From an uncultured Gemmataceae bacterium (lineage in GTDB: Bacteria; Planctomycetota; Planctomycetia; Gemmatales; Gemmataceae): 64,000 bases of DNA. The notes under the pieces are model-generated. The model saw only the letters and a program-made list of their open reading frames with translations. It did no database searches and was not told where the DNA came from. Positions 1 to 58,239 of the stretch are shown here, piece after piece (the first letter of the stretch is position 1; each line of letters begins with the position of its first letter). The position numbers were made by a program, and so were the translations under genes. The stretch spans positions 672,001 through 736,000 of the forward strand of contig CAVVPN010000004.1 of the NCBI GenBank assembly GCA_963750165.1. Direction: 5' to 3'.

Positions 1-3000
1 CTCGCCGCCGAGGTACAGCACCGGCTCGGTGCCGAGGTAGTAGCGCAGGTCCGTTGCGGTGTAGGTCGCCACGTCGTACTTGGCGAGCAGCACCGGTTCG
101 CCGGCATGGTGCGTCACCGGCCGGCCATTCACGGTGATCGTCGCCAGCGTGTACAGCACCACCTGGCCGTTGACGATCAACGGCTGGTTGTTGGCGCCGA
201 CGACTGGCTGGCCGACCTGCACCGGCTCGCCGCCGTGATAGGTCTGGGCCACGCCGTTGGTCTTCACCTGAGTCACACCGTCCGCGATGTACACCGGTTC
301 GCCGGTCATGTGGTCCAGCGGGTTGCCCTGGGCGTTCACGATGGTCGAGGCGGTGTACAGGATGGCGGCGCCCGTGGTCGGGTCCGTCTCGACATCGCCG
401 TTGGCGTTCACCACCGGCTGGCCGACCTGCAGCGGTTCGTCGCCGAAGTAGAACTGCTCGTCGCCGGCCTGGTGCGTTGCCCGGTGCTCGATCACCACCT
501 TGATGATGACCCTATCGGTCATCGCCAGGTGACTCAGGCTCAGGTGGTTCAGTTCCACCAGATCGTCGGCGCTGCCGTTCGGGGCCGGGACTACCGTGAA
601 CTCGCTCGGGTCCAGGTTGAACACGTTCGAGGTCGAGAGGTCGATGACGGTCAGCGTCACCGCGTCGCCGTTCTGCAGCCGGTACGGGAAGCCCTCCGAT
701 TGCAGGTCGAGCGTCGGTTGACTGCTGAGCGTCAGCGGCACATACTTCCGCTCGCCGGCGAAGTGCGTCGGGTGGCTCGCCAGCTCGGCCGCCGTCCACA
801 CCTCGACATTGCCGTCGGCGTCCAGGAGCAGCTGGTTGTTCGTGCCGACCATCGGTTGGCCGGGCAGGATCGGCTCGCCGCCGTTGTAGGTCGAGCCGGC
901 GCCGACCAACGGCACCCAGCTGTCGAAGGTCAGCGGCGTGTACGGGTTGCCGATGTCGAGCAGGTTGCCGTTCTGATCGACCACCTGGTACACCGGGTCG
1001 CGGCGGAAGTGCAGTTCCGCGTCGTCTGGCTGGTGCTGGAAGACGCTCTGCAGCAGCAAATTGCTCACCAGCACATCCGACGTGCCCACCTCGTTGATGA
1101 GCTTGCCGGCCGACGTCAGGAACAGCGTGGTGCCGCTGATCGAGTTGATCGTGTACGAGCCGTCGTTGTGGTTCGAGTTCTGGATGAAGATCGTTTGGCC
1201 GGCCTGGAAGCCGTCCGCCGTCCAGCTGCCGCTGCTGCGGGTGATGCTGTCATGCGTGCTGCCGGCCATGAAGGTCAGCGTCGGCTGACCGGTCATCTGC
1301 ACGAAGCTGGCGGTGCCGCCAGCCAGCGTGTCCGCCAGCGACAGCGTTAGTGTCTTGCCGTCGGTGCTGATGGCGGCCACGGTGTAGGTGCCGTTGTTGG
1401 CGCCTGCCCCCTGCACGAGGATGCCATTGTTGACCTGGAAGCCGTCGGCGCCCCAGTTGCCGCTGTTGCGCGTGATCGTGTCACCGCCGCTGGCGTTGTG
1501 CGTGAACGTCAGCGTCAGGCTGGCCGCGACCGCGACGTTGGTCGTCACCGGCACCGGCGCCGTGGACGTGGCGATGGTCAGCGTCAGGTCGGTCAGGGCC
1601 GTCACCGTGTAGACACCGTCGTGGCTGGTGCCGACCAGGCGAACAGTGTCGCCGGCGGTGAAGTTGTCGTCGATCCAGCTGCCGGCGTTGCGCGTGATGG
1701 TGTAGCCGCCGCTGATCGGCGCGAAGGTCAGCGTCGGGCTGCCGGTCAGGGCGCCGACCGTCACCTCGGAGGTCGTCGTCACCACGGAGCCGGTTTGCAC
1801 CTGAATGCCCGAGTCCGGGCCTTCGTTGGTCAGGTGGTTCGACGTGGCCAGCGTGATCGTCGTCGCGGTGACGGCGTAGATCGTATAAGCGCCGTCGTTG
1901 TGAACGGTGCCCTGCACGACGATGATCTGGCCCGCCTGGAAGCCGTCAGTGACCCAGCTGCCGGCGCTGCGTGTGATCGTGTCCTGCGCCGGCGTGCTGA
2001 CGTTGACGTTGGTCAGCGGCCCGGCATCGACCAGCTGGGCCGAACTCGTCAGGGTGATCGTCGCCGCGGTCAGGCTGGCGATGGTGTAGTAGCCGTCGTC
2101 GTGGACCGTCCCCTGCACCTGGATGACCTGGCCGACCTTGAAGCCGTCCGCGATCCAGCTGCCGCTGGCGCGGGTGATGGTTTCGCCGTTGCTGCTGAAC
2201 GTCAGGGTCGGGTTGCCGGCCGGCTGGATCAGGTTGTGGTTGAACGTCAGCGTGCCGGCGGCCGAGTTGGCACCGTAGTGAATCGGGTTGCTGGCCGCGC
2301 TGCTGACGTTGTTGACCACCGGTTCGCCGCCGATGTCGCGGACGAGGTTGCCGTTGCTCTCCACGGCCAGGTCGCCGGCGTAGTGCAGCACCGGATCGCC
2401 CGCCTTGTGGACCTCCGGGTTGCCGAACGGGTCGAGCACCGGCAACTTCGTGTACAGGTCCAGCACCGGCTCGCCGCCCTTGTACAGCAGCGGCGCGCCC
2501 GTGAACGGATCCGTCACCGGTTCGCCGGCGAAGTACGTCTGGCGATCCGGGTTGCTGGCGTTGCCGTGGAAGACCTGCTGGCCGCTGGTGGTCAGCACGT
2601 CCACCGGCACCGGCACCGTCGCCAGGGTGCCGGTCAGGTTGTTCGCGTCCGCCGAGCCGGTGATGTATACCTGGCCGGTGCCCGTCGCGTCGGTGCCGCG
2701 CACTTCCACAGGTTGCAGGTATGGCATCACCTGCGTGCGGTCCACCTGGATCAGCGCCGGGAAGTTCGTCGGCGTGTTCACCTGGAAGCCGTTGTTGTCG
2801 ATGTACAGCAGTTGGCGCCGACACCGAAGTCCTGCACAAAGGAGTCGTGCAGGGCGGTCTGCACCGTCGCGCCCGTGATCGTCTCGTTGTGCAGGTGGTC
2901 CGCGGCGCTCAGCGTCAGCACCTTGCCGGTCGTGTCGATGGCCGAGATTGTGTACGACCCGTTGTTGCTGTTGGTGCCGGACACATAGATGACATTGCCG

Positions 3001-6000
3001 ACCTCGAAGCCGTCAGTGATCCAGCTGCCGGTGTTGCGCGTGATGGTGTCGCCGGCCGTGCTCACGTGCGTGAACGTCAGCGTCGTGTTCGCCGCCAGCT
3101 GCACCGGCGTCAAAATCTTCTTGCCGGCGTCGTTCAGGTAGACCGGCTGGCCGCCCTCGGTCGCCGGCTCGTCGATGATCGCCGGCGGGTTGTGGATCGT
3201 GTTGCCCGCGGCGTCGGTGCCCAGCGGCGCGAACGTCAGGTTGCCGTTGCTATCGACGTAGACCAACCCCGTGGTGACGACGCCCGGCGGGATGGTGCCG
3301 GTGTCCACCGTGCCGTTCGGCACCGGGATGATGTCCGGCGGGTTGGGATTGCTGCCGGTCATTGTCGCGGTGGTTTCGTTGCCGTTGGCGTCCAGGTACA
3401 GCAGGTGGCCGCTCACGTCGCGCTTCTGAATGCCGAACTCCTGCACGCCGGTTTCCTGGATGCCCTGTTCCTGCACCAGGTCCATGACCGGGTTGCCGCT
3501 GGCGTCCAGCACGACGCTGTGGACCTGCAGGTAAGCCGGGTTGGCGGTGAAGTTTTCCAGTTGCACGCCCGTCGCCGTCAGCACCGGCACGTTCGTGAAG
3601 TTCTGGTTCATCGGCTCGACGATGGGGGCCAGTGTCGCCCGCACGTAGGCCACCGTGTGGCCCGTGCTGTCGGTGTAATACTGCACGCCGTCGGCCGCCG
3701 TCGGGGCGGTGTTGATGAACACCGTCGGCAGGTTGTTCAGGATGCTGGCGTAGGTGGCGGTGTTGACCAGGGCGGTCGTCTCGTCCAGGTGCGTGTCGCC
3801 GTCGAATGTCACATTCGACAGGATGTTGCCGAAGTGGCTGTTGTTGGACACGTTCAGCGTGGACTGCCCCGGGCCGCCGTGGATGGCGACGGGAGCGCGG
3901 GCCTCCTGAATGTTGTAGGTGTCGTTGTGCAGGCCGCCTTCGATGTCGATGCTCATCGGCGGCGGCGGGTTCGTGACGCTGGTCGGCGTCGCGCCCAGCG
4001 TGAACGTGTTGTTCAGGGCGCTGGGCAGCCGGATGTCCAGGTGCTGCACGTCGGTCAGCTCGATGCCGTAATACGGGGCACCGTCGGCGTCGTGGCCCAG
4101 CGGCGTGTTCGGGGCGGCGTTCGGCGGGTTGATGCCGAAGCCTTCCAGGCTGTAGTAGTCGTTGAAGATCGGCAGGCCGGTCGTCGGGTCGGTCGCCTGC
4201 GTGAACACCGTCTTGCCATTCACGGGCGTCGCGCTGGCGATCTGCTGCGGAATCTGCCGCAGTTGCAGCGAACCGACGTTGTCGCCCGCGGCGGCGTTCG
4301 TCGCCAGCTGGTCGTCCACGATGACGGTGTTGCCGTTCACCTGGTTGCCGACACCGCCGTCGATCCGCAGGTGGCCCAGGATGCCGGAGATGTCGTAGAC
4401 ACCGGTGGCCATCAGCGCGAACGGGGCTGGCTGCACGGTGACCGGCGGCGGCGTCACCAGCTTCGTGTTCTGCACCAGCTGGCCGACCTGGTAATTGATG
4501 GCGATGTCGCTGACCGTGAACTCGACCACCGGGTCCAGGAAGGCGAAGAACGAGTTGAACTTGAAGTTAATGTTGGTCACGTTGCCGACCACGTTCGGCC
4601 GGCTCGGGTCGGTCTTGAAGTACGGCGTGAACACACTCAGGATCTGCTGCACCAGGTTGGCGTAATTCTGAGCATACGCCTGGGCGGCGTTCAGGAACTG
4701 GCTCGGGTTGAGGGCCAGCGAGAAGATGCTCGAATAGCCCAGGGCACTGAGCGGCACGTCGAAGGTCACGGCGCCGAGGTTGTAGCTGGCCGGCGAATAC
4801 TGGACGGTCGGCGGCAGCGTCACCGTGAACGGCGGCGGCTGATACGTGTACGACGGCGGCGTGAACACCAGTGGCGGCGGCGTACCGCCCACATGAATCG
4901 TGTTGTCGCCAGTGCCGCCCGCAACCGTGACGAACGTGTTCTTGGCCGTGCTCAGCACCCAGATGTTGTCGTTGCCGCCGGCGCCATCGACGACGATGGA
5001 CTGGATGTTCGAGAAGGTGACGATACGGCCGGCGCCCGCGACGTAGGTGTTCGTGATGATGAAGGTGTCGTCCAGCGGCGTGCCGATGACCACCAGCGTG
5101 TTGGTGCCCGGGCCGCCGATGATGTCCACCGGGGCGTTTTGCAGGTACTCGTAACGGTTGGTGCCGGTGCCGCCGAACACCGTTTCCAGGTTCGTGATCT
5201 TCTTCGAGTTGGTCGGGTCCTCACGCAGCACCAGGAACGTGTTCAGCAGGAACAGGTTGTTCCCGGCCCCGCCGTGCAGGTACAGCGTGGCGCGGTTGTG
5301 ATCGACCTCGAAGTTGTCGTTGCCGGTGCCGCCGAGGACGAACAGCGGATTGCTGTTGCCGTTGGTCATCGCGGACGTGTTGGCCACCGGCACGCCGTTC
5401 GGGTACTCCAGGGTGCGGTTGCCCGGGTCGGGAATGAGCGGCACCGTGCCGACCTGGATGTTGTCGTTGCCTGAACCGAAGTTCACCACCGTCAGCGCCG
5501 CGGTGTCGTTCGACAGCACGTTGTCATTGCCGCCAAACGTGCTCACCAGCACGTCCTGCACGCCCTGGTAGGTGATGGTGCTGTGGCCCGGCTTGGTCGG
5601 ATCGCCGAAGATCACCGTGCCGGTGCGTGAGGCGCCGGAGCCGGCGGCGTTCAGCGTGATGTTGTCGGCGCCGTCAGTGCCGTTGACGATGAGCTGGCTG
5701 GAGCCCGCCTGCACCGCTGCCGGCGCGATGGTGATGTTCGCGCCCGACTGGCCATCGGTGCTGATGACGTAGTTCTCGGTGTACGGGTCGGCGGTGTCGC
5801 CCATGTTGTTGAGCGTCACGCTGCCGGTGAAGGGCGTGACGTGGACAGGGACGCCGCCGACGTAGATGACGCCGTTCTTGTTGCCGACCACCAGGGTGTT
5901 GTTGTGCGCGCCACCCTGCATGATGACGTTCGCGAAGATGCCGGTGATGTCCTCAACGATGGCGCCGCTGGCGTAGTGATCGGCCAGATTGTTCGGCACC

Positions 6001-9000
6001 AGGTTCGGCAGCGGCGAGGCCATGAGCACGCCGTCCAGCGACGATTCGCTCGGCGGCATCGTGGTCGAGTAGGCGCCGCCGTTGGTGCCGAGGATCGAGC
6101 CGATCACATATTTGTTGCCGAACAGCGACATGTCACTGTCGTGCGTCTGGATCAGCGTGTTGGTGCTGGTCGGGCTGATGAAGGTGTCCAGCGCCCCGCC
6201 ACCGACGAAGGTGTCCGAGCCCTGGCCGCCCTCAAGCGTTTCGTTGTACGGCCCGCCGATCAGCATCGAGTTGCCGGCGCCGGCGATCAGGGAGACGGCG
6301 ATCAGGTCGGGGTACGTGTTGGTCGTGTCGAGCGGGTTGCCCAGGCCGCTGGCGTCGAGAATGTCGCTGCCGCCGCCGCCGTTGACCGTCAGCGTGTCGC
6401 CCTGCGAGCGGACGCTGTGGTACAGCACGATGGTGGTGATGCCCTGATCGACCACCTGCACGTCCTGCATCACATGGCTCGGGCTCGGATCGATGGCCGA
6501 GACCACGAAATGGTCGCTGCCGGTGTCGCCCTGAATGAGCACGTTCTTGGCCGTGCCATCCGGAATGAAGGTGTAGGCCGGCATCGTGACGCCCTGGCTG
6601 TCGGTCACGGTGCCGTTGGGCACCGCGGTGGCGCCGAGGTCCACCGTGATCTTCGGCACGTTGGCGTTGCGCAGCGAGCCGATGGTGACGCTGCCGGCGC
6701 TGGTGCCGGAGTCCACGTCGATCTCGGCGACGCTGTTGGCCTTGATGGCGCCCTGGAAGGTGCTGCCCTGGTAGCCGGCGACCTCAACGTTGTAGTCGCT
6801 CGGATGGGAGATCACGATGTTCTGGCCGGTCGTGTTGCTGCCGGCGGCGATGGTCACCTGGCCGCTGCTGGCCGCTACCGTCGTGGTGCCGTTCGCGGTG
6901 TTGAACGGCCACTTGATGAGCGTCTGGCCGCCGCCCGGGAAGATCGAGGCGTAGCCGCCGTTCACGTCAATCTCGCCGCCGGCCGAGCTGCCGTGGATCA
7001 CATCGCCGGGGACGTAGCTGGAGATCCTCGACACGCCGGAGCCGGTCGTCACGCCGTCGCCGGTGCCGCCGTAAATGGTCGCCGGCCCGGTGCCGTAATG
7101 GACGATGTTGTCGGTGCCGGCCCCACCATAGAAGACGGAGCCCGCGGCGCTGGCCGGTCCGGTGTACAGGTAGCTGGCGGTGCCGGCGGCCTCGTTGCGC
7201 ACGTCGAGGGTGGCCGGGCCGCTGCCGCTGTCGTCGAAGATGTTGTTGCCGCTGCCGCCAACCAGCGTGACCGGCACCTTGACGCCCGGATCGACGACAA
7301 CGTTGTTGTTGCCGTTGCCCATGTCGCCGACGATGCCGGTCACGCCGGTGAAGGTCTGCGAGCGGCCGAACGCCGTCACCTTGATGGTTTCGCCGTTGGT
7401 GGTGCCGCCCAGGTCGTCGATGGTGTAGTCCTCATCAACCGGCGTGCTGTCGGTCGGCTCGCCGATGCCGCGCGACCCCGACCGCGGTCCGGTGTTCAGA
7501 TACAGCGTGCCGCCGCTGAAGCTGGTCGGGTCGCTCTGGCTGCCGGCCAGGTAGATCGGCGCCGGGATGGTCACGTAGCCGATGGTGAAGTCCGCTCCCA
7601 CGGAGATCGAGAAGAAGAAGAAGTGCAGCGTGATCCCCACGTGCAGATCCAGCGGCACCCGGCCGCCCGTGCGCAGCGCCGTCAGCGAGAAGTTGATGTC
7701 CACGCCGAACGAGATGCCGAAGATGTGGACGCTGACGCCGCCGGAGCCGGAGACCGTGAACGCATGGTCGTCCAGGCGGATGTCGAAGGTCAGGTAGCCG
7801 GACAGGCCGAAGGTGGACGAGCCCAGCGAAATCATGCCGGATACGTGCAGATGGAAGTTGCCGTTCGACTGCAGCCAGCCGTTCGCCTGCACCGTGGCCA
7901 GGCCGAAGAAGTCCATGCTGGCGTTGACGGCAATGATCCACTGGCCCATGCCCAGGTTGGTGGTGTACGTCGTCGCGTTGCCGTTGGCGTCGGTGTCCGG
8001 GACCGTGGCCGAGCCGCCGCCGACCTGGATGACGAAGCTGGCGTTGAAGTGCAGCACCGCCAGGATGTCCACCTGGCCGCTCAACATCAGGCGGAAGATG
8101 TTGGCGGGGATCATCACGTTGTTGTAGCCGCGCGTCTGGTTGGTCGTGTTGATCTCGAGCGAGCCGCTGGCGCTGATGTGGAAGATGCCGCCGAGGATGT
8201 CGAAGTCGAGCGACACGCTCAGGTCCAGCGCCAGGCCGGGGCTGCTGTCGTTGTAGATGCCGGCGAAGCCGGTGCCCGAGACGTTGAGCGGGCCGAGCTG
8301 GAACATCACGTTGAAGTACAGCTCGAAGGCGTTGTTCGAGATCATCACCATCACTTCGCCGCTGGCCTGGGCGAAGCTGCCGAAGCTCACCGAGCCCTGG
8401 ATGTCCAGCAGGAAGCCCGGTTGCAGCATGTGGCCGTCCTGCGTGGTCACGGTGGCGCCGGTGGTGTTGATCTCGAAGAAGAAGCTGGCGCTGAAGGTCA
8501 ACCCGACACTCTGGCCGAAGCTGCCGATGCCGGCGCTCACGTCGAGGAAGGCGAACAGGCCGGCCGACGTGACGCTCAGTTCGCCGCTCAGCTGGATGGA
8601 GCCGAGCGGGCCGAGCACGACATGGCCGTTGACCACGATGTCCATGCCGCTGGCGTTGATGGTGAACGAGAAGTAGCCCTGAATCTGCACGATGCTGGCG
8701 ACCGTTAGCGAGCCGCTCATGACCAGGCGGAAGCCGCTGGCGATGGGCTGCTGCACGATCATCAGGTTGCCGTTGGCGTCCTTCTCGAAGCCGTCGAAGT
8801 TGCCGTTGGCATCCTGGCTGATGGCGAACGTCGAAACCGTCTGCGTGGTGCTGAAGGTGTTGATTTCCAGCAGGAACTGGCCGTCCAGCTGCACGCCGGG
8901 AATCTTGTTGGCGGCCAGGGCCAGGAAGACACGGCCGACGACGCCGCTCTGGCCCGGCTGGCTGCTGATGGTCACCACCAGGTTCAGGGTGCCGGTCAGG

Positions 9001-12000
9001 GAGCCGAGGAAGCTGATGTTGGTACTGACGGCGCCCGTGACGATCAGCTGGCCCTGCGTGGCGTTGACGCCGACGCTGATTTGCAGGAAGCCGGTCAGGT
9101 CGAGCACGCCGCCGATATTCAGGTCCGCCTGGATGGTGGCGACGATGTACACCGCTGGCTGGGCGTTCGGGTCGCGGGTGCCGTCGAGCTTGGGCACGCC
9201 GGCGAAGATGGTGATGCTGGTCGGGGCGCCCGGGGGCAGCAGCGGCAGGAAGGCGTCCGGGATCATGAACGTCTGATCCTGCAGCGTCGTGTTGAACGTC
9301 ACCGTCACGGAGCCGGTGGCGCTGAAAATGCTGCCGACGTTGGGCAGGCCGATGTCGGCGCCCGCGGCGATCTTGAAGCTGCCGGCGACGCCCGGGTTCG
9401 TGCCGTCCAGGCCGGTCTTGACGATGAGCAGGCCGGTCGCCATGGCGTAGTTGATCGTGGAGCTGCCGCTGCCGAACGACAAACTGGCCGTGGCGTAAAT
9501 CTCGAACTCGGTCGGGTCGATCTTGATGTAGAAGCCACCGTTCAGGTTGAGCAGGGCACTGCTGGTGCCCGGCGGCTGCAGCTTGAGCGAGCCCACCACT
9601 TCGAGGGAGAAGCTCTGGGCCGCCAGCATGTACGTCTGCGTCAGGTCGCCGCCGTCGGGGCCGATGCCCGGGAGCGTCAGCGTCTCGGTCTTCACCTGGC
9701 TCGTGGTGTTGATCTGCAGTGTGCCCGAGGCGTTGATGTAGATGCCGTACTGCTCCAGCACCGAGAAGTTCGTTTGCACCGTCGCCACGCCCCAGAACAG
9801 CGGGGCGCTACCGTCCTGCGGGTTGGTGTCGAGGATGAAGATGCCGGCGGTCGAGCCGACCGTGCCCAGCTTGTAGATGCTCATCTGGCCGGAGAAGGTC
9901 AGCGTGAACACGCTCCGCACGGTGTCGATCTCGAGCTGCGCCTGCGCCTGGACCTCCATCAGCGGGCTGGAGGTCAGGCCGGCCGCGTTCAGGATGATCG
10001 CGCCCGAGATGTTGATGAAGAACGCCTGGGCGTTGGTGATGATGGTGAACGTCTCGGTCGAGGCCATGCCGCGGTTGCCGGCGCTGTCCTTCCACGCGCC
10101 GGCGATGAAGTTCACCGTCACGGTGCCGGTGTCCCAGCTGCCGGTGAAGGTGTAGCGGTAGGTGCTGGTGGTGCCCGCGACCAGCGTCGGGTTCGGGTTG
10201 ACGGTGATGTTCTCGCCGTTGGCGCCGGTCAGCGTGAACGGGGCGTTGACGATGCTGGTGGTGTCCACGGTGGCGCCTGGCGTCGGCGTGAAGGTCACGT
10301 CGATGTAGCCCTGGCCGTTGAGCGTCTCGCGGTCCACCGTCTCGCCGGCCATCGGGTTGGCCGTGGCGGCGGTGGCGCCGGCGACGATGAACGTCTCGGT
10401 CGCTTGCAGGTTGGTGGCGCCGCTGTCGTCGCTGAACTTGCCGGCCACGAACGTCACGGTGTAGGTGCCCAGGACCAGCGCGCCGGTGAACGGATAGTCG
10501 AAGGTCGCGGCGGTACCGGCCACCTGCGTCGGCGTGCCGAGCGGGACGTTGTTGCCGTTCGGATCGGTCAGCGTCACCTCGCCGCCGGCGATGGCGGCGG
10601 TGTTGATGTTGTGGCCCTGCGTCGGGTGGAACGTCACCTCGATGAAGCCCTGGCTGTTGATCTGCGTCAGGCCGATGCTGCCGCCGGCCGCCGGGTTGGT
10701 GACATCCGCCGTCGTGCCGTTGACGGTGAAGCTCTGCGTGTCCGCCAGATTGCCGGTGGCGCTGCCGCTGGTGTCGCCCTGGTCCTTGAAGGTGCCGGCG
10801 ATGAAATTCACCGTGACCACGCCCGTCGTGAACTGCCCCGTGAACGCGAAGCGGTACGTGGTGCCGTTCACCAGCGTGGGTGCGGTGTTCGACAATGTGA
10901 CACCCGCGGCGGCGCTGCCGGACAACGAGAACTTGGGCGCCGCGGTCGTGAAGCTGGTCGGGTCCAGAGTGTCGCCGGCCGCGGGGTTGAAGGTCACGTC
11001 GATGTAGCCACGGCTGTTGAGGGCGTTGATGTCGATGCCGGCGCCGTTGCCGGGGCTGTTGAGCGTCGCGGTGGCGCCGACCACGGTGAAGGTGAACGTG
11101 GTCACGGCGTTGGCGGTGCCGGTGACGGTGTTGCCGTTGACCATCGTGTCGGCGTCCTTGAAGGCGCCCGCCGGGATGGTCACCGTCACTGGGCCGAGCG
11201 GCCAGGTGAAGTTCGGCTGCGTGATGTCGTAGCGGAAGCGGTTGACGCCGGTACGCATCAGCGCATCAGTCATGCTCTCGCCGCTGTTCGGCACCAGCGG
11301 CGTCTCGCTGGTGGTGCCGTCCGCGTTGGTCGTCGTGACCATCGGCGTCGGCGTGCCGCTGACCGTCACCGCCGAGCCGTTGACCATGATCGTCAGCGGC
11401 GTGCCGGTCGGGTTCAGGATCGAGTTGTAGTCGAGCACCGCGCCGGTGGTGGCCATGTACTCGACATCGATGTACTGGTTGCCGTTGTCCAGGTGGCCGC
11501 TGCCGTTGATGCTGTTCACGTCCACGGTGCTGCCGGACGGGTCCGCCAGCGTGGCGGTCGGCGGCATGGCGTTCGACGCCGGCGCCGTCTCGGAGGTCGT
11601 CTGGAACGTCACCATCTGGCCGCTGGCGTTGCGGAAGCCCATCGAGATCGAGCCTTCGATGGTCAGCAGCCGCACCTGGTCGGGGATGTCTGCCAGGAAC
11701 AGCACCACGACACTGCCGTTGGCGACGTGCGACAGGTCGGCGTACAGCTTGCCGCTGATGCTCAGGGCACCGTTGAAGAAGTTCAGCGTGCCGCTGATGA
11801 GGAACTTGCCATCGGTGCTAATCTTGATGAGCACCATGCCGTTGAACAGCGCCTGCGAGGTGTAGATGTCGAACACCTTGGCGCTGGCGGTAATCAGCAT
11901 GGGCGAGGTGAACGCCGCCAGGAAGCCGTTCTCGCCCGGGTGTGATTGCAGCGTGATGAACTGCTGCAACACCTGCTGTTGCAGCGACGCCTGCCACTGG

Positions 12001-45000: not shown

Positions 45001-48000
45001 GGTCAGATTTGGCAGCGCCGGCCCCTGGACGGTGGCGTTGACGACGGCGGCGGCGACGCCCGCGGCGGTGAACTGCGCGGCGAACGAGGCGTTGCTGATC
45101 GACACGATGCGCTGCGTGCCGGCCTGGAGCAGGAAGTTGAGGTTGGTGCCGGACACCGCCACGCCCGTGGCGTCCTGCTGGAAGACGAACTGGTCGGCGC
45201 TGAGGGTGTTGCCGGCCACGGTCAGGGTCGCCGGGGTCGCGTCGGGGTTTTTGCCGATGACGACCTGGATGAACAGAGTGCCCGGGGCGGAGGCGGGCAC
45301 GGCCACCGTCTGGCCCGCGACGACCAGGTTGCGGGCGGTGCCGGTGTTGTTCAGCAGCAGCGACGCGGTGCCGGTCAGGCTGACGCCGAGGCTCGGGTCG
45401 GGGCCGTTGATGGTCGCGTTGAGGGCGGCGCCGACCAGGCCGCCGGAAGTCAGCAGGAAGGCGAAGTCCATGTGCTGCAGCTGCACGATGCGCGTCGCGT
45501 TGGCGTCGAGTTCAAAGCTCAGGTTTTGACCCGAGACCAGAATGCCCGTCGCGTTCTGCAGGAAGTCGATTTCGTCCGCCATTAGCGTGAAGCCGCCGAT
45601 CCGCAGGAAGCCGGAGATGACCTGCACCTGCAGCAGCGGCCCGGCCGGCAGCGTGACCGTCGCGCCCGTGGCGCCGGTGAAGGTGTGGAAGTCGGCGGTG
45701 GTGTTGATCGCCAGGGCGAAGGTGCCGCCGAGGCTAATGCCCGTGCTCGGCGCCACCGTCACCGTCGCCAGCGCCTGACCAACCAGGCCGGCCGTGGTCA
45801 ACTGGAACGTGCCGGCGGCGTTGCTGACCGTGACCAGGGCGCTGCCGCCGGCGGTCAGTGCCAGGCCGGCGTTGGCGAAGGTGATCGTCACCGTCTGCAC
45901 GCTCGCGGTGTTCTGCTGTTCAAAGGTGAAGTTACCCATCAGCGTCTGGCCCGCGACCGTCAGCACCAGGTTGGTGCCGGTGACGCGGACGAAGGTGCCG
46001 GCGGGCAGGTTCAGCGTGATGGTATCGGCACCGACCTGGAGGCTCTCGTTGACGGGGGCGCCGGTGGTGTTGAAGCTGACCGTGAAGGTGCCGCTCAGGC
46101 TGACACTGGGCACGGCACTGGCGACCGTGGCGGTCAGGCTGCCGGCCAGGCCGCCCATACTATTAATGATGAGGAAGCCCTGACCGTTCGTCACGTTCAC
46201 CAGGTTGTTGGTGCCGTCGGTCAGGCTGAAGCTGACGTTGCTGGCGGCGATGCGGATCTGCGTGTCGGTGCCGCCCGGCAGGTTCGCGGTCACCTGCTCC
46301 AGGGCGAAGTTGCCCGTCAGGGTGATGGTGTTGGTGGCGCTGAGGTGGATGGTCAGCTGGGTGCCGGTGCCGGCGATGCGCAGGTACGGCCCGGCCGGCA
46401 CGTTGACCATGACCACCGCCTGCACCTGGGCGCTGGCGTCCGTCTCGTTCTGGACCTGGCCCGAGATGGTGAGCGTCAGGACGGTGGCAGTCAGCGAGGC
46501 GACGGTGAAGGCGCTGTTGTTCTGGGCGGTGCCGGTAATCTTGATGGTGTTGCCGGCCTGGAAGCCGTCGGTGAGCCAGCTGCCGGCGCTGCGGGTGATG
46601 GTGTCGCCGGTGATCGCCGTGGCGAAGGTCAGCGCCGGACTGCCGGTCAGCTGGGCCGCGGTGGTCAGCGTCGTGGCCACGGCCGCCGGGGTGGTGTTGA
46701 TCGTCACGCCGAAGCCGCTGCCGAAGGTCACCGCGCTGGACGCGAAGTTGATCGTTCCAATCATGCTGCCGGCCAGGCCGGCGCTGGTGAACACAAAGTC
46801 GCCATTGCCGGTCAGGGTCAGCAGGTTGGACCCGCTGCCGAGGTTGGCGGCCACGTTGCTGAAGTGGACCGTCAGCACCTTGGTGCCGCTGCTGTCCGTG
46901 CCCTGACCGAACGCAAAGCCACCGGTCAACGTCTGTCCAGAAAAGCTCAGCGTGCCCGAGGTGACGCCGACGCTGGCGATGGTGATGGCGCCGGTGTTGT
47001 CGAAGGCGACCGATACGCCGCTGGCGGCGAGCGTCAGGCCAGGGATGCCGACCAGGGAAAGGTTGGCCGCCGTGGCGGTGAGGACGTAGGTGCCGGAGGT
47101 GGTGCCCTGGGTGACGCTGCCGTTCGCCCCCGTCAGCAGCAACCCCTGGGCACTCGGATTCGGGATCATGCCGCCCATGCCGTCGGGAATCGTCGACGGC
47201 CCCTGACCGACGAACAGTGTCACATTGCTGAGGGTGAAGGTGGAACCGCCACTGAAGCTGACCGTGGCCTCGATCTGAACAAAATTCCCCAGGTTGAGGC
47301 TGCCGGTGCCGACGAACGTGAAAGTGTCCGTGGCGGTTGGGAAGTTGATGGTGAACGTGCGTCCGTTCAGATTGATCGTCTGATTGACCGTCTGTCCCGT
47401 CTTGTTGAATTGCAGGCTGATCTCGGCGCCGACGGAGAAGTTGCCGGAGGCCACGCCCGCCTGGCCGGAGATGACGCCGGCGATGCCTGAACCGACGATC
47501 ACGAAGGCGCCGCTGCCCTGGGCGAGCGTCTGGCCGTTGAAGACCACCTGCAGGTTGGTAACCGCGACCCGAGTGATGGGGTTGTCGCCCGCGATCATGC
47601 TCTGGTCGAAGGCGAAGTTGCCGGTCAGTTGCGTGCCGCTGCCCGCCCCGCTGCCGAGGGTGATGCTGGCGCCCACCACCTGAACGCGGAGATACGGGCC
47701 TGCCGGCACCTGGATCGGCGTCACGACACCGGCAACCGTCACCGTCTCGTTCACCGCCACCGGGGCCGTGTTCACCTGCATCGTTACGGTACTGGCGCTC
47801 ACCATCACGCCGGGCACGTTGAAGGAGGCGGTGACCGTGAAGCTGGCGGCGACGCCCTGGCTGGTCAGCGCGAGCGAGCCGATGCCGTTCGTGATGCTGA
47901 CGTAGGTGACTGTACTGGTGCCCAGTGACAGGGCGGCGTTGCTGACTCCGAGCAGGACCAGCTGGCTGTTGTCCGCCGCGGTCGTCTGCTGCAGGGTGAA

Positions 48001-51000
48001 GTTGCCGCCGAGCGTCTGCTGCTGACCAGCCGGACCTAGTTTCAGCGCCACCCCGGTGCCGACGCTGGCGACGCTGAACGTCGGCGTCGCGGTCGTTGTG
48101 TCGATCTGTACATTGAAACTGCCGTTCAGGGCGACGTTCGGGACGTTGACCGTCACGCTGCCAGTGAAGTTGGCCATGATGCCGGCAGCCACGACGTTTA
48201 ACGTACCGCTGGCGACGCTGACATCCGCCAGGTCGTTGGTGCCGTCTGTCAGTCGCAGGGCCAGGTTCGTCGCCGTCACCTGAGCGCCGCTCGCGGACTT
48301 CGTGAAGGTGAACGAATCCGCAGTCAGGCCGTTGCCCAGGATTGTGAACGTTCCTCCACTGACATTAACGTTCAGGTACGTGCCTGGCGCCGCGGCCGGC
48401 ACGGTGATCGACTGTCCATCCACGCTCAGCGTTTGCACCACTGGCGTGGTGTTCACCAGCAGCGACACCGTCCCCGCCAGGGCCAGCCCCGGAATCGAGG
48501 GCCCCGTCAGGGTCGCATGGTTCACTGCTCCCAGGATGCCGTTCTGGCTGAACTGGAAGGTGAACGACGCATCCGTGATTTGCAAAATCCGCTGCGACCC
48601 CGCCTGCAACAGCAGACCGAGGTTCGTACCGGACACCTGTACTTCCGATCCGTTCTTCTGGAAGATGAACTGGTCGGCAGTCAGGCTGTTGCCCAGGACC
48701 GTCACACTCGCCGGTGTGGTGGTTTGCCCGGTGGTGGTCGGCCCAAGGACGACCTGCACGAAACTACCGCTGGTCGCCGCCGGCACCGGCACCGTCTGCG
48801 TGCCGATCGTGAACGTTTGACCGGTAGGCGTGGTGTTCAGGTACAGCGACGCCGTGCCGGACACGGTGATGCCGAGACTGGCGTCCGGTCCGGTCAGGAC
48901 CGCACCGAGGGCGGCGCCAGCCAACCCGGTTGGGGTTAGCAGGCCGGCGAAGCTCATTTGTTGGAGGCTCAGGATCTGCGTTGGTCCGGCGCGGGTGATG
49001 TAACCGACGTTCACGCCGGCGACAGCGATGCCGGTGCGACTTTGCTGGAAGGTGATCTCGTCCGCGGTCAACGTCTGGCCGGCGACCGTCAGCACGGCCG
49101 CCTGGGCCTGCACCTGCACCACCGGGCCGGCGGGCAGGTTCACGAGTACGGGCGATCCGTTCACTGTGAACGTCTGATCCACCGCCATGTTGGTCGCGTT
49201 GACGCCGATCTCGAAGTTGCCGGTCACGCTGACGCCGCTGCCGGTCGCGACCTGCACCGTGCCGGCGACCTCGCCCACGGCACCGCCGGTCGTCAGGATC
49301 AGCGCCCCGCTCGCCCCGGTCACGGTCACCAGCGGTGTCGCGGCGGCGGACAGCGCCAGCCCGGCGTTGGCGAAGGCAATGGTCACTGTGGCGGTGTTCG
49401 CGGTGGTGAACTGCTGGATCACAAAGTTGCCGGTGAACGTCTGTCCGGCGACCTGCAACGCGGCGTTGTTGACCTGAAGCTGGACGTAGGGGCCGGCCGG
49501 CAGGTCGATCTGCGCGGTGCCGGCCGTCAGGTTGATACCCTGATGAACGTCCGTTGAGAGTGTATTGATGGCCAGCTGGAAACTGCCCGTCAGGCTAACG
49601 CCGGTGCCGGGCGCGAAGGCCACCGTGGCGCCGGCCAGGCCGGCAATGCCGCCGCTGTTCAAAAGGAACGTACCGCTGGCGTTCGTCACCTGGACGAGGT
49701 TGCTGTGCCCATCGCCGAGGTTGACCTGCACGCCGTTGAAGGCGACGGTCACGACCTTGCTCAAATCGGCGTTGGTGTGCTGTTCAAAATTGAAGTTCCC
49801 CTGCAGCGTCTGTCCATCGACCAGTAGCGACACACTGCTGCCGGTCACGCGGACGTAGGGGCCGGCCGGCACGCTGACCGTGGCAGCGGAGTTGACGCCG
49901 AAGGCGAGCGCCGTGTTGACCGCCGCTGTCGAGGTGTTCACTGCCACCGTGAAGGTGCCGCCGAGGCTGACGCCGCTGGCGTTCAGGCCGACCGTGCCGC
50001 CCAGGCTGCCGGCAACGCCGGCGCTCGTCAGCAGCAGGGCGCCGCTGCCGTTGGTCAACGTCAACAGGTTCGCCGTCGTGCTGTCGCCCAGGTTCAGCGC
50101 CGCGTTGCCCGCGGTGACGGCAATGATGCTCTTGCCGCTGGCATCGGTGCCGGTACTGAACCCAAACGTACCACTGAGCGTCTGTCCAAGCACATTGAGA
50201 CCAAGGGTGCTCTGGAAGCTCTGCGTGCCGTTCGGCACGACCGTGGTCGGCACCAGGCTGGGGACGGTCCAGGCGGTGCCGGAGTTGTTGAACTCGACCG
50301 TCGCGCTGGCGGTCCCGGTGCCCGTCGGTCCCGTGAGGCTGACGCCGGGGATGCCCAGGAACTGCACGTTGCCGGTGGCGTAGACGGCGTACTGACCAGT
50401 CGTTGCGAACTGGTGGGCGTAGACGCTCGCCCCCGACAGCAGCACACCGCGAGCGCTCGGGTTGACCGAACCGTCCGCCTGCGTCCCCGGACCCTGACCG
50501 AGAAACACGTTCAGGTTTGTGCCGCTGAACGAACCATCACTGGCGAAGGTGACGGTGCCCTCGATGCTCACGAAGTTGCCGATCGTCACCCGGCCGGAGC
50601 CGTAGAACTCGAACAGGTCGGCGCCGGTGGTGAACTTGATTTCCAGGGTGCTTCCGTTCAGGTTGATCGTGTCATCGATCGGCGCCCCCGTCTTGTTGAA
50701 GCGCAGCCCAATAGCGGCTCCGGCCGTGAAGCCGTTGACCGCCACCGCCGCCACGCCGGACACGTAGCCGGCAATGCCTGTACTGGTGACGATCAGTGCG
50801 CCTGTACCCTGACTGAGCGATTGCCCAGCGATGGTCGCCTGCAGGTTGGCGATGGCGACGCGCGTGGTCGTGACGCCGGCGACGCTGCTCTGGTCGAAGG
50901 CGAAGTCGCCGGTGAGCTGGGTGCCGGTGCCGGCGCCGGTCGCGTTGACCGTCAGCGTGGCACCGATCACCTGCACGCGGACGAACGGGCCGGCCGGCAC

Positions 51001-54000
51001 CTGCAGCGCCAGTGGCACCCCGTCGATGTTCAGGGATTCGGACTCCGGCACAGGCATCGTGTTCACCTGCACGGTGACCGCGCCGGCTGTGACCGTCACG
51101 CCGGGGACCGTGAAGGTCGCCGTGGCGCTCACGCTCGCGGCCACGCCCTGGCTGGTGATCAGAAAAGCACCGCTACCATTCGTGACACTGACGTAAGTGT
51201 TCGTGCTGTCCCTGAGCGTCAGGCTCACGTTGCTGGCGCCGACCTCCACCAGCTGGCTGCCGTCGTTGGCGATGATCTGCTGGACCGTGTAGTTGCCCGT
51301 CAGCACCTGGCCGCCGACCGTCAACTGCTGGCCGGTGACCGTGGCCTGGATGCTCTGATGGTTCGGGTCGGTGGTGTCGATGGCGACCGTGAAGTTGCCG
51401 GTGAAGGACACCCCGGACAGGTTCACCAGCGCCGTGGCACTGAAACTGCCCTGAACGGACGTTCCGGAGAACTGCCCGTTCACCATGCGCGCCGCCAGCG
51501 TGAACTGCGCCGTGGTGCCGACGTTCTGCGTCAACTCGACGAGCGGATTCGTCCCATCCGTCAGCACCAGCATGGCGTTGGCAATCGTCAACTGTACACT
51601 GTTCGTGCCCTGCTGGAAGGTGAAATCGCCCATCAGCGTCTGGCCGAGCAGTTGCAAGTTGACGCCCGTACCGCTCACGACAAACGTCGGCGTCGCCGCC
51701 AGGGCGAGCACGACCGGGACGCCGCCGACGCTGAACGACTCGTTGACCGCGGCGCCGGTGTTGTTCACCGCCACCTGGAAGTTGCCCCGCAGGCTCACGC
51801 CCGGGGCGTTGACGGTGACCGTCCCGCCCAGGGTGCCCGCCAGGCCGGCGCTGTTAATCAGGAACGTACCTTGACCGTTGTTCACATCGACGAGGGCGTT
51901 CGTGCCGTCGCCCAGGGCCACCGTCACGTTGGAGGCGGCGACCTGTAGCACCGCATGACCGGCGCTGGTCGTGATCGACTGGAACCCGAAGTTGCCCGAC
52001 AGCGTCTGCCCCGCGACCGTCATCTGAACATTCGTCGCGTTCACTTGCAGCAGGGGGCCGGCTGCCACATTGACGGCCATTGTCGTACCGCCCACCATCA
52101 CGCTGTTCTGATAAGCCGAGCCGGTGCTATTGAGCACGAAGCTCACGTCACTGCTGGCCGTGTTCAGCTGAATCGCATTGGTCGTTGTCAGCGCGATACT
52201 GGCGTTCACCTGCCCAACCAGGCCGTCCGGCGTCAGCAGCGCCAGACCGCTGCCGTTGGTGATGGTCAGCGCCCCGCCCGGGCCGAGGTTGACGCCGACG
52301 TTCGCGAAGGCCACGGTCAGCACCTGCTGACCATCGGTCGTGGTCGCCTGATCGAATGTGAAGCTGCCGTTGAGCGTTTGCCCAAGGACGTTCAACCCCA
52401 ATGTGCCCTGGAAGCTGCGTGAACCTCTGGCCACGGTCGTGCCGATGCCCGGCACCATCCAGTCGGCGGCGGAGTTGTTGAACTGCACCGTCGCGGTGGC
52501 GCCGGCCGCCAGGCTGACGCCGGGGACGCCCACCAAACTCACGTTCCCCGTGGCGTACAGAGCGTAGTCCAGGCCGCCGGGTGTGGCACTATCCGTGAAC
52601 TGCTGGGCATGCAGCGTCACGCCGGTCAGCAGCAGGCCGCGGGCCGTCGGGTTGGGCGTGGTGCCGTCGGCGAGGTAGGCCGGGCCCTGCCCAAGGAACA
52701 GGCTCGCGTTGGTGACGGTCAGGTTGCCGTTGGTGTCCACGCTGACGGTGCCGTTGACCGTGACGAAGCCGCCAATGTTCAGGCTCGCCCCACCGGCCGT
52801 CAGCGCGATGAACGGTGTGCTGCCGTTGGCCGCCTCGTTGCTGGCGAAGACGAGCGGCAGCGCCGCTCCGCCGGTCGGGACCGATGTCTGATCCGGCACC
52901 GGAATCGTTTCGTTGACAGCGCCGGGGGTGGTGTTGATGCGCAGATCGAGGTTGCCGCCGAGCTGGAAGCTGCCCACGTTAGCGGACACCTGCCCCGAGA
53001 AGATGCCGGCCACGCCATTGCTCAGCACGACCAGCGCCCCGTGGCCGCCGCTCAGCGCCCCTGGGTGCCGACGGTCGCGGCCAGGTTCGCCACGGCGATG
53101 CGCGTCACGCTGCCGGTGCTGGTGCCGGTGCCCTGAATCTGATCGACGAAGAAGTCGCCCTGCAGCACCTGGCCGCCGACGGTCAACTGCGCATTCCGCG
53201 CCACCACCTGAATGTGCGGCCCGGCCGGCACGTTCACCTGCACCGACTGGCCGCCGACCGTGAACGTCTGATGGATGGCGGCGGACTCGGTGTTGAACTG
53301 CACCTGCACCGTCGTGGCCAACAGCGACACGCCGGCCGCACCACCGATGGTCAGCGTTGGGCTGCCCGAGAAGCTGCCCGCGACGCCGTTACTGTCGAGG
53401 ATGAACGCGCCCTGACCGGACTGGACATTGATACCGTTGTGGTTGGCATCCTGCAGGTTCAGACTCGCGTTGGCCAGCGCCACCGACACCACCTGGGCGC
53501 CCGTCGCCGTCGTCACCGCTTGCAGCGTGAAGTCGCCCGTTAACGTCTGTGTCTGTCCGGTGGCGCCCGGCAGCGGCAGCGTCAGCGTCTGGCCCGTGGC
53601 CGCGAGCTGGAAGTATGGGCCGGCAGGCAAGTTGAGCAGCGACGTGGACGCCGTGTTGACGCTCAGCGTGTACGTCCCCGACAGCGCCGCCCCGCCGACG
53701 GCGACGTTCAGGCCGAACGAACCGGTGCCGGCGAAACCACTGCTGCCGAGCTGGAACGTCGCGGTGGCGCCGTTGGCCGCCCCTTGCGGCGCCGTCAGGC
53801 TCAGCAGGGTGTTGCTGCCATCCGTCAGCGTCGCCTGCAACTGCGTGCCGGCGAGCGTGAAATCGAAGCCCTGCTGCGTCGAGGCGGATACCGTCCACTG
53901 GCCGGACAGCGACTGGCCCAGCACGTTCAGCGTGCCGCCGAAAGTCACTGGCGTCGTGATCCTTCCGGCGAGGAAGGCGAAGAAGTTCGACGCCACGCTG

Positions 54001-55178
54001 GCCGTGCCGCCGTGGCCGCCGCCGGCGAAGGCGCCTGCACTGATCGCCTTGCCCAGCTGCTGCGCCACCGTCCCCGGCGTGTCCCCGGCCACCGACGTGT
54101 AACTGTACGTCTGGCCGTCCAGCAGCACGCTCCAGACGTGGCCTGCGTTGACCGCGCCGCTGATGGTGAGCGTCGCGGACGTGAAGGCGGTCGCGCTGGG
54201 GGTGGCGGTGATGGCGATGCCGGGGTCCGTGGTCGAGACGCTGGAGGTGCCGCCCGGGTTGGCCGGGTTGCTCGTCAGATCCAGTTCCGAACCCTGCACT
54301 TCCGCCTGGCCGGGCACCTCGGCCACCACCAGGTTGTACACCTTGTTGACCGGATCGAGTTGCGGCTTGAAATACAGCCCGTTGCCAATGCCCAGCCCCT
54401 GGAACTTTGTGAAGTCGCCCGTCACGGAGCCGAAGGTCAGGAATGGGAAGGTGTCGCCGACGGCCGGCTGAAAATTGTTGCCGAGCTGCACTTGCAGCGT
54501 GCCGTTCAGGCTGGCGGCGCCGGCCACCTGCAACTGGTCGTAGCCATCGCCCGCGCCGGCCGCCCCCTTGCCGTAGACCTGAACGACCAGGGTGCCGGTC
54601 GCGGTCTGGCTGTAGGAGGCGAATTGCTGAATGCCCGGCGAGTTGCCGGGGCTGACCACGCCACTGCTGACCACGGGGCCGCTGACGGTGCCGTTGCCGG
54701 TCACCTCGTCCGTGGAGCCGAGCACCAGGGAACCGTCCACGCCGCCGCCCGGCGTCAGGTGGTAGTTGTGGCCGGCAGGCGCCGCCAGGGCGTCGGTGGC
54801 GAAGGCCTGGTCCAGGGCTGACGCTTGTGGCCCGGCCGGGGCGGCCGGTAGCGGCGTATCCTGCGTGAGCCAGTCTCCCGAGGCGAACAGCTGGTCCACG
54901 GCACCGACGGAATTCGGGGGCAGGCTGGTGGGCGTCTGAATGGAGCTGGAGGAAGGTTGCGGTACGGTCAGGTTGTTGGCCGTCACTCCGGTCTGGGTGG
55001 GGAGCACTGGCGGCTGGAGGGGGTTCTCGGGCAAAGCGGGCCCGGTCGGACAGATGCGATCTTCCAGTTGCTCCAGGCGCGGGCGTATCCACTCCCCCTT
55101 TGCGAAGAAGGGGAGCGGTCGCTTCGACTTCGGCGGCGGTTGGCCGTCCAAAGGCTGGTGCAACACGGAGATGGCCAT
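1..55178 (-). CDS. Giant extracellular beta-repeat protein with planctomycete export motif (>18,300 aa, 3' end beyond window; five 1-2 nt frame breaks)
   Basis: Minus-strand ORFs 53052..55178, 43906..53028, 27122..43867, 21535..28857 and 2778..22565 join with continuous repeat phase after 1-2 nt corrections. I translated 2814..1 by hand (QLLYIDNNGFQ...YYLGTEPVLYLGGE) and found no stop. Composition is uniformly G/T/V/A/S/L/N-rich. Confidence 0.85.
1065..3105 (-). repeat. Module A cluster: ~80-aa P.LTF....GDTITRS.GSW..DGF..G..I...GT..N(N/D)G.YT module (6 copies here; 4 more at ~28325-28570, ~34960-35225, ~38370-38612, ~46415-46655)
   Basis: Hand translation, e.g. DTITRNTGSWITDGFEVGNVIYVSGTNSNNGSYT, ETITRASGSWIADGFKVG, DTITRSAGSWVTDGFQAG, YTITRNAGSWIDDNFTAG, DTITRNSGNWGADGFQV, DSITRSSGSWTADGFQAG. 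Confidence 0.9.
4880..7430 (-). repeat. RTX/hemolysin-type Ca-binding-like Gly-rich nonapeptide region
   Basis: GGSGNNIF, GGAGTDNI, GGGGSDIL, GGQGSDTF, GGTGNDNF, GGAGNNLF, GAGGNDNI and GGTGDNTI in the 6595-aa ORF. Confidence 0.7.
10040..14790 (-). repeat. Six ~115-160 aa Ig-like repeats (A.L..P..G......N..GYIDVTF...YR(Y/F).F.G....G.V.V.F.AG...D)
   Basis: Four tandem copies at 10040-11565 and two at 13990-14790. The Ig-like assignment is inferred from length and pattern. Confidence 0.7.
14840..53960 (-). repeat. Core array of degenerate ~110-130 aa beta repeats (NT..VN.T..V....L.LPAGP(F/Y)....G..L...GQ.L.G.F.F.Q)
   Basis: Roughly 40 exact PAGP motifs plus variants counted by eye. Residues alternate hydrophobic/polar. 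The DNA 'gaagttgcccgtcagcgtctggcc' and close variants recur. Confidence 0.9.
18441..21810 (-). repeat. Module B inserts: ~95-aa EVQ.VTV.A.GGTFTLSFNGQTT..(L/I)AYNA.A..VQ.AL..LSNIG.GNV.VT..GN.YT.TFQGTLAN repeats (9 tandem + 1 single)
   Basis: Nine GG(S)T(F/Y)TL cores at 18441-21177 and one at ~21540-21810. A further copy lies at ~13330-13610. Confidence 0.9.
54325..54700 (-). other. Autotransporter-passenger-like / beta-helix cap domain common in PVC secreted proteins
   Basis: Translation VSPGNSPG...YDQLQVAGAASLNGTLQVQLGNNFQPAVGDTFPFLTFGSVTGDF. Confidence 0.6.
55047..55085 (-). other. Planctomycete extracellular-protein N-terminal motif (RPRLEQLEDRICP; Planc_extracel / LEPR-XLL-like)
   Basis: Residues 32-44 of the ORF starting at ATG 55178 match the RxxxExLExRxxx pattern. 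No classical hydrophobic Sec signal precedes it. Confidence 0.8.
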
Positions 55179-58122: not shown

Positions 58123-58239
58123 GGTCGGGCTCTCCTGGCAGCGGGCCAAAATCCCTGCCTCATCCTAACCGCCACCTCTACGGGGCTGCCATCCTGATCT
58201 CTGGCCGCCTGCACTACGGCCCGCCGACCGAAGTTTTCG

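Follow-up and report, generated by a model that had tools for sequence, protein, structure and literature searches.

Extent and coding signal of the gene

The window analyzed here is a 64,000-nt stretch of the genome of an uncultured Gemmataceae bacterium (G000; 9.62 Mb in 12 contigs, 66-67% GC) and corresponds to G000:C4:672001-736000. Its minus strand contains six long open reading frames (ORFs) arranged head-to-tail, neighbors always being in differing frames. In the ORF listing, ORFs 1 to 5 occupy positions 53052..55178, 43906..53028, 27122..43867, 21535..28857, and 2778..22565, respectively; ORF 6, at 1..2781, is free of stop codons up to the window edge. We propose that the six ORFs are fragments of one minus-strand gene of about 79.7 kb, whose in-window part (1..55178) continues leftwards out of the window, and that the five breaks separating them (b1 to b5) are single-base consensus errors in the assembly. 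In our estimate, the probability of this reading is roughly 85%.

The ATG at 55176..55178 (minus strand) is the first start codon after the in-frame stop located upstream; a scan for sigma-70 promoters upstream of this codon returned no site. A three-frame composition scan located switches of the coding frame at approximately 53031, 43965, 28854, 22692, and 2808, with no gap between the segments. The last frame extends 24.5 kb past the window and ends at a stop codon at C4:647455-647457 (window -24545), which is the terminus sought by the initial annotation through extension of the contig to the left. From stop to stop, this frame (C4:647455-675012; 9,185 codons) is the longest single unbroken frame, and the whole gene, from the ATG to the stop codon, spans 79,724 nt. 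The size initially advanced, in excess of 55 kb and 18,300 amino acids, was right in designating a very large gene and proved to be only a lower bound.

The in-frame segments comprise 708, 3020, 5037, 2054, 6628, and 9117 codons (26,564 in total) and contain no internal stop. Based on a codon-usage model trained on 1617 long ORFs of other contigs, log-odds per codon were 0.33-0.54 in frame for all six segments and -0.6 to -1.3 for the other two frames. The GC content of third codon positions (GC3) was 0.89-0.95 in each segment. The plus strand also contains long ORFs (maximum 3,352 residues); these have negative codon scores and a GC content of first codon positions (GC1) of 0.87-0.95, and are antisense shadows. 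The initial annotation had claimed a single start and breaks devoid of both intergenic space and a second signal. These claims agree with the sole ATG at 55178, the gap-free composition scan, and the occurrence of the leader motif LE.LE.R only once in the protein. It had also anticipated that automated annotation would shred the gene, and the protein collection indeed contains two of its fragments as separate entries, P0001 (5581 residues) and P0013 (3035 residues).

The five breaks, their homologs, and their sequence contexts

Breaks b1 (53055..53063, minus strand) and b2 (43980..43988, minus strand) share the sequence CAGGGGCGC, in which the run is short by one G, resulting in a -1 shift. 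One G added to this context, CAGGGG(G)CGC, restores protein sense. Breaks b3 (28864..28873, minus strand) and b4 (22677..22686, minus strand) share the sequence CAGCTCGAGC, which contains one surplus base resulting in a +1 shift; sense is restored by dropping one base, CAG CTC (G) AGC being read as Q L S. Break b5 (2806..2816, minus strand; GCCAACTGCTG) is short by one base, resulting in a -1 shift. The shift directions are thus mixed, +1 at b3 and b4 and -1 at b1, b2, and b5. Matches to the hidden Markov model (HMM) of the 122-residue repeat unit described below run across b1 (residues 682-801), b2 (3656-3788), b3 (8696-8828, score 135.6), and b4 (10772-10900). The proposal that the repeat phase is unbroken over all five breaks therefore holds for b1 to b4 and does not apply to b5, which lies outside the array.

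The giant gene contains five CTCGAG sites, three of which are at or beside a break, including the site at 43974-43979 that directly adjoins b2. This proportion led to the genome-wide context test reported below. A cause shared by the three CTCGAG breaks was dropped, since the -1 shift of b2 is most readily accounted for by the adjoining CAGGGGCGC run. CTCGAG is scarce in the genome (763 sites versus about 3299 expected from base composition), which says little because the counts of palindromes with an identical base composition vary between 34 and 5722.

Relatives were searched in 41 genomes for the N-terminal part and in 151 genomes of the same family, a same-genus genome being present in neither set. 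Matches to the gene were found in 8 of the 151 genomes, G000 itself counted. A clear ortholog (63% identity) is present in G115, which belongs to another genus. It is located at C10:~84,000-114,854 (loci L034-L035), comprises about 10.3 thousand residues, and starts with the leader ALESLEDRILP (motif LESLEDR). The N-terminal domain, the main repeats, the central region, and the C-terminal repeats are collinear in G115 and G000. With 160-residue junction peptides as queries, G115 was found to be in one frame across b3 (59% identity) and b4 (53%). The residue spacing in G115 is the one predicted by the removal of one base from G000, at b3 (AGLAGQMSGTVSIPAANFSG versus AGLAGQL-S-ATVSIPAANFSG) as well as at b4 (INGAVQIGSAGVAAV versus INGSVQL-S-NAGLAAV). 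Residues 3284-6637 of G000 are collinear with P0004, a metagenomic protein of 3795 residues (50-54% identity) that aligns in one frame through b2 (48% over 242 columns). In P0002, a single ORF of 5636 residues carries both the main repeats and a leader, RIEQLEDRIAP. The junction-peptide search suggested by the initial annotation thus revealed homologs reading through b2 (P0004) and through b3 and b4 (G115); at b5, no spanning homolog was found in relatives. Together, the stop-free segments, the coding signal, the contexts of the breaks, and the homologs reading through b2 to b4 uphold the initial view that the six fragments form one gene.

The G000 gene is 2.6 times as long as its G115 ortholog. 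Main repeats contribute about 8,000 of the additional residues, and a stretch of 7,000 residues (16,500-23,500) has no counterpart in G115. DNA identity between repeats does not exceed 78% over at least 300 nt; misassembly is therefore unlikely, and we take the expansion as real. The G115 ortholog is itself shifted at ~100,150 and ~103,450, where G000 is continuous. The G115 assembly (10 contigs, completeness 70) probably contains errors of the same kind.

The contexts of the breaks were tested in the rest of the genome with a site test based on codon usage, in which both 300-nt flanks had to be coding, on the same strand, and stop-free before their frames were compared. A change of frame was detected at 9 of 46 GCTCGAGC sites coding on both sides versus 25 of 1009 sites for six control 8-mers, and at 8 of 38 sites for CAGGGGCGC and its complement versus 58 of 2056 random coding positions. 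The four sites of the giant gene itself do not account for this enrichment: when they were left out, the proportions were 7/44 versus 25/1009 for GCTCGAGC (Fisher p = 2e-4) and 6/36 versus 58/2056 for CAGGGGCGC (p = 6e-4). G or C homopolymers of at least 6 nt were likewise enriched for frame changes (about 8%).

The genes interrupted in this manner include housekeeping genes. GCTCGAGC splits trigger factor within its N-domain (Trigger_N 3-93 and 89-140 on the two sides, followed by Trigger_C; C3:~52078), a transporter of the SBF family (2-142 and 163-306; C4:~1107529), a protein with PSCyt2 and PSD1 on either side (C3:~2693210), and two more large surface genes. CAGGGGCGC splits an Hsp70/DnaK protein (positions 1-372 and 373-597 of Pfam HSP70; C11:~438850), a GlmS paralog between its SIS domains (positions 1-429 and 430-607 of TIGR01135; C4:~956960), and a protein with PAS on one side and GAF-receiver on the other. 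The defect is the same at base level as in the giant gene, as indicated by the sequences flanking the break (slash) in Hsp70 (IQG/(A)QLLLGSKSEVLLLDVTPLSLGIE), GlmS (LQG/(A)RMIEE), trigger factor (APL/SAPNIDPGK), and an adhesin of contig C11 (NWEQL/SFQTVDP). No tig match in the genome other than this split gene exceeds the family cut-off. For dnaK, the cut-off is reached only when the two halves (604.7 and 300 bits) are put together; another Hsp70 is likewise split (C11:684565-686092). The recurrence of a same-sign shift in two short contexts, at the expense of housekeeping genes, argues for a systematic consensus error of the assembly rather than for biology. Until the assembly has been polished, calls of frameshifts, pseudogenes, or split genes anywhere in G000 are best discounted.

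Other approaches were tried and set aside. A GC3 phase test at 6-mers and an ORF-merge test, in which one base was deleted or inserted, were replaced because the background was too high at 67% GC (CTCGAG, 11.7% versus 9.5% for random positions; 4.1% versus 2.3-3.1% for controls). A strict change-point test flagged only 3 of 761 CTCGAG sites and overlooked b3 and b4. A de novo search for k-mers enriched at the 1984 same-strand frame changes of the genome mainly retrieved ordinary gene overlaps (ATGA/GTGA) and thus provided no figure for the total error load.

Errors favored by specific contexts systematically hide giant genes from annotation. G000 contains other very large genes that bear the leader or resemble adhesins, one on the plus strand of C3, with 11,353 residues following an LE.LE.R leader, and others at C11:2077909-2092529, C11:2099102-2110694, and C12:1070928-1082064. 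Three of the other very large genes of G000 are split in two frames at sites of the giant-gene type; among the domains detected in split large genes are PPC/Big_5 in one gene and PD40 and cadherin in another.

Architecture and predicted structure of the protein

Once the five errors are mended, a single reading frame would encode one polypeptide of about 26,570 residues. In order, this polypeptide would consist of a basic LExLExRxxP leader, approximately 97 stacked β units, a middle region with few repeats, two repeat regions, and a DUF4214 domain. Its main residues are T (14%), G (12%), A (11%), V (10%), L (9%), S (8%), and N (7%). It is acidic (1302 D+E versus 528 K+R) and nearly devoid of cysteine (3 in 26,564 residues). 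No transmembrane-like hydrophobic segment stood out, the maximum Kyte-Doolittle mean over 19 residues being 2.0 in a β-strand region. The first 100 residues contain no hydrophobic core of a signal peptide (maximum 19-residue mean of 0.3).

The leader motif LEQLEDR (in LEQLEDRICP) occupies residues 35-41 (55056..55076, minus strand) and follows a basic stretch. LE.LE.R occurs within 90 residues of the first start in 58 ORFs of the genome. At least 1000 residues follow the motif in 23 of these ORFs, at least 3000 in nine, and 11,353 in one. Since many of the 58 ORFs are long, the motif defines a leader class for large proteins; the initial annotation had noted that giant exported proteins with an N-terminal motif of this kind occur in Planctomycetota.

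The N-terminal domain (residues ~150-270; 54369..54731, minus strand) is the sole portion of the 708-residue N-terminal segment with matches in other genera of the family, in 11 of 40 other genomes and in each case within a large ORF. Next comes an array (residues 417-13,375; 15024..53930, minus strand) in which an all-β unit of 122 residues is repeated in tandem about 97 times; the profile of this unit has 101 matches in the protein. The central region with few repeats (residues ~13,400-19,500) begins within 1..15023 (minus strand) and continues outside the window. Also outside the window are a second repeat family (residues ~19,500-24,000), a third family with repeats of about 75 residues (TFTVSGWTG...; residues ~24,400-26,400), and, at the extreme C-terminus, DUF4214 (PF13946; Pfam E = 1.3e-11, 44.8 bits versus a cut-off of 23.2). 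Another recurrent element, present between β units as well as within the central region, is an inserted module of about 65 residues (...TITRSAGSWITDGF..G..I.V.GT..N.G.YTIA.V....LTL). It is found at ~45,200-46,000 and ~37,500-38,300 of the window and to the left of the window (C4:~673,000-674,400), and it also matches large ORFs in the relatives G160 and G124 and on contig C11.

The whole protein was searched in 10 pieces. Besides DUF4214, no Pfam or NCBIfam family exceeded its threshold, and four hits below threshold (PTSIIA_gutA, MG2, Fer2_4, and similar) were disregarded. The 10 pieces contained no match to RTX nonapeptide repeats (PF00353), to FG-GAP/VCBS repeats (PF01839, PF13517), or to enzyme domains of Pfam. 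No autotransporter family of Pfam was detected, and the organization differs from that of type V secretion, with a helical DUF4214 domain at the C-terminus and an N-terminus lacking a hydrophobic core.

The model of three consecutive units, built from an alignment of 20 paralogous three-unit stretches of the gene itself, was obtained with a predicted local distance difference test score (pLDDT) of 90.7 and a predicted template modeling score (pTM) of 0.86. It is entirely β, with strands of 10-15 residues connected by tight turns. A search of the ESM Atlas returned unnamed clusters only. The best structural neighbors were β-jellyroll ('β-taco') proteins of the Lpt/TamB/AsmA type and single-layer β-sheet repeats (MORN, TCP10); porins were also among the top neighbors. 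LptC (6mit_C) aligned to the three-unit model with Z 6.6 over 120 residues (root-mean-square deviation, rmsd, 4.1), MORN1 with Z 6.6, LptF with 6.3, and TamB with 5.4. The Z scores for Lpt/TamB/AsmA (5.3-6.6) are all below 8, a range that the tool reads as a common arrangement, and these proteins share neither a sequence relation nor a Pfam match with the unit.

A model of the last 600 residues contains a short-strand β-solenoid (pLDDT ~95), the structure predicted for the last repeat region, followed by a helical domain (pLDDT ~70-80). The helical domain resembles phycobilisome-linker domains (template modeling score, TM, of about 0.6 on the target; rmsd 3.4 Å over 112-120 residues). The DUF4214 helical region, which corresponds to the C-terminal ~210 residues (L001:7458-8100, outside the window), was likened to structures of the PF00427 type. 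A fold of this kind is odd at the end of a giant β-repeat protein in a non-photosynthetic bacterium. The solenoid was compared with the RTX β-roll, and the likeness was weak (E 5e-4, TM 0.21-0.31, rmsd 14 Å). A search of the Protein Data Bank (PDB) with the sequences of both termini returned nothing at E below 0.1.

Alternative explanations, putative role, and distribution

Several observations weigh against one gene interrupted by assembly errors only. The errors are deduced from the pattern of the shifts and from homology. Break b1 is crossed by paralog-level alignments only (36-48%). Only about one fifth of the coding GCTCGAGC and CAGGGGCGC sites are shifted in the counts that include those of the giant gene (9/46 and 8/38), and the error would therefore be favored by the context and not obligatory. 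An intact glmS paralog is present on C12, so that the glmS case alone is no proof of an artefact. At the protein level, the leader (residues 1-60 or 1-300) had no match in NCBIfam, including the LEPR-XLL model, at E values up to 10. The unit model had no Foldseek match in the PDB at E ≤0.001, and the best Z score in a VIA scan of 48,161 representative chains was 6.6, below 8. The remaining points on this side concern b5. Its context is not enriched for frame changes genome-wide, neither G115 nor five other relatives nor the species-representative collection yielded a counterpart, and no paralog in the genome spans it. Moreover, the stop codon of the old frame (TGA, 2778-2780), located 30 nt past b5, shares bases with a new-frame GTG (GTGA).

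Stop/start overlaps of the GTGA type are a normal way for coupled genes to abut. The overlap at 2778-2781, a context that is no frameshift hotspot, and a junction spanned by no homolog or paralog found would fit two genes, b1 to b4 being artefacts and b5 a real boundary between a gene of about 17,450 residues ending at the TGA and a coupled gene of about 9,100 residues starting at the GTG (2781). However, the product of the second gene would be devoid of a leader, since the entire reading contains a single LE.LE.R motif, and the coding signal is uninterrupted at b5. The motif [LV][LV]Y[LIV]D.NG, whose only two occurrences in the concatenated protein are at positions 17248 and 17294, has a third copy (LLYIDNNGF) that lies in the new frame and begins upstream of GTG 2781. 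The tail of the old frame, GANCCTSTTTASR followed by the stop, holds two cysteines, as against the three of the entire concatenated protein. We therefore regard two genes as unlikely, and continuity through b5 is suggested, on weaker evidence than that available for b1 to b4. The shifts might also be real mutations, the giant gene, tig, dnaK, and the others being true pseudogenes of a decaying or mutator lineage. The assembled sequence does display the shifts, and the G115 ortholog also has two. These are at positions other than the breaks of G000, however, and the six segments have remained stop-free over 708 to 9,117 codons with a GC3 of 0.89-0.95. Same-sign recurrence in two specific contexts of 8-9 bases is a technical signature, and decay would leave the genome without a functional tig and without a functional Hsp70 of dnaK grade, which makes this explanation very improbable. 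Finally, some GTG or TTG codon is present near the beginning of each fragment, as six separate genes would require, or the gene could rely on programmed ribosomal frameshifting at the motifs. Both possibilities are scarcely credible: there is neither intergenic space nor a second leader, repeat units and homologs pass through the junctions, and most other coding sites with these contexts show no shift. The signature of programmed frameshifting was not found either, the shifts occurring in both directions at sites that are not slippery and the G115 ortholog being unshifted at b3 and b4.

For the product of a single gene with five assembly errors, we infer export through the leader, followed by assembly into a very long cell-surface or extracellular fiber that would serve in adhesion or in building a matrix. 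Among roles for an exported structure, we judge that a surface fiber or adhesin has about an even chance; the long surface filament, stalk, or adhesin put forward by the initial annotation is likewise a putative role. A more speculative possibility, which we consider quite improbable, is that the single chain of about 26,570 residues, exported through the leader in place of a classical signal peptide, stacks its approximately 97 units into a continuous open groove of the Lpt/TamB type, acting as a giant bridge or conduit across the enlarged planctomycete envelope and not as a passive adhesin. The groove would then be hundreds of nanometers long, any length of the fiber being a guess.

Giant repeat-rich genes are a known feature of Planctomycetota (PMC5177795, PMC12673574). 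Giant genes have been defined as exceeding 5 kb (Reva and Tummler, 2008, as cited in Kohn et al., 2016; PMC5177795), and a 2025 review assigns them surface, transport, or extracellular functions (PMC12673574). The gene described here resembles the giant genes of Planctomycetota in that it is very long, repeat-rich, scarcely annotated, and presumed to have a surface or extracellular role (PMC5177795). Its 79.7 kb are more than twice the 36,239 bp of the largest gene reported there in 29 genomes (PMC5177795). In the study by West-Roberts et al. (2023; bioRxiv 10.1101/2023.11.21.568195), proteins of at least 10,000 residues occur in Planctomycetota, and proteins of more than 30,000 residues are found in no phylum of the Planctomycetota-Verrucomicrobiota-Chlamydiota (PVC) group except Omnitrophota. 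In the same study, fragmentation is said to hide such genes and adhesion is the favored role. The gene thus passes the 5-kb threshold for giant genes, and its product belongs to the 'large' class (at least 10,000 residues), short of the 30,000 residues required for the 'giant' class. Giants of Omnitrophota have many transmembrane regions and SecA-like and enzyme domains (bioRxiv 10.1101/2023.11.21.568195); here, no hydrophobic segment stood out and no enzyme domain was detected. The host genome carries families that are hallmarks of planctomycetes (DUF1501, PSCyt2/PSD1, and DUF1559 with N_methyl). The gene fits as an unusually large example of known planctomycete giant genes, and nothing in it overturns what is expected of the phylum. 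If made as one chain, the protein would be among the largest of bacteria, far above the planctomycete giant genes surveyed so far. The clean demonstration of assembly errors hiding giant genes is worth noting alongside its size and the uncharacterized fold of its repeat unit.

The unit is widespread. A 1000-residue query from the array retrieved 1219 cluster representatives at E ≤0.001, of which 308 were at ≤1e-30, and a 5000-residue query retrieved 47 proteins of 2770-8815 residues. The hosts of the latter belong to Verrucomicrobiota, Planctomycetota, Actinomycetota, Desulfobacterota, and others, and nearly all of the proteins are unnamed. The homologs P0002-P0047 have the 122-residue unit in common with the giant protein, and some have the same kind of leader; the names that occur are 'LEPR-XLL domain-containing protein' (P0014) and VCBS/FG-GAP or calcium-binding proteins. 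Many homologs combine the unit with FG-GAP/VCBS or RTX repeats, whereas the giant protein has neither. All the homologs listed are far shorter than the giant protein, although most are on short contigs. The C-terminal repeat is also common in smaller proteins, several of which are labeled Gemmataceae. The 122-residue unit, present in more than 1000 sequence clusters yet devoid of a Pfam or NCBIfam family and of a clear solved fold, deserves the definition of a family and a structure.

The giant gene is preceded on the same strand by WD40 genes and, further upstream, by genes for a DUF1559/N_methyl protein, a LeuA-like synthase, and a class I tRNA synthetase. Genes for DUF1501, a hydrolase, and an epimerase are located downstream. 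No secretion-system or partner gene was seen beside the giant gene. A terminator-like hairpin is present 13 nt past the stop codon (L001:7419-7442, minus strand); this single hit, versus 0.6 in shuffled sequences, is no more than expected by chance. An in-frame TGA (57625-57627, minus strand) separates the WD40 ORFs at 57628-58164 and 55669-57624. It is located where the repeat is expected to have its Trp, at the 'WD' position (DGRI-stop-DVATG), and could be due either to an erroneous TGG>TGA substitution or to a genuine nonsense mutation.

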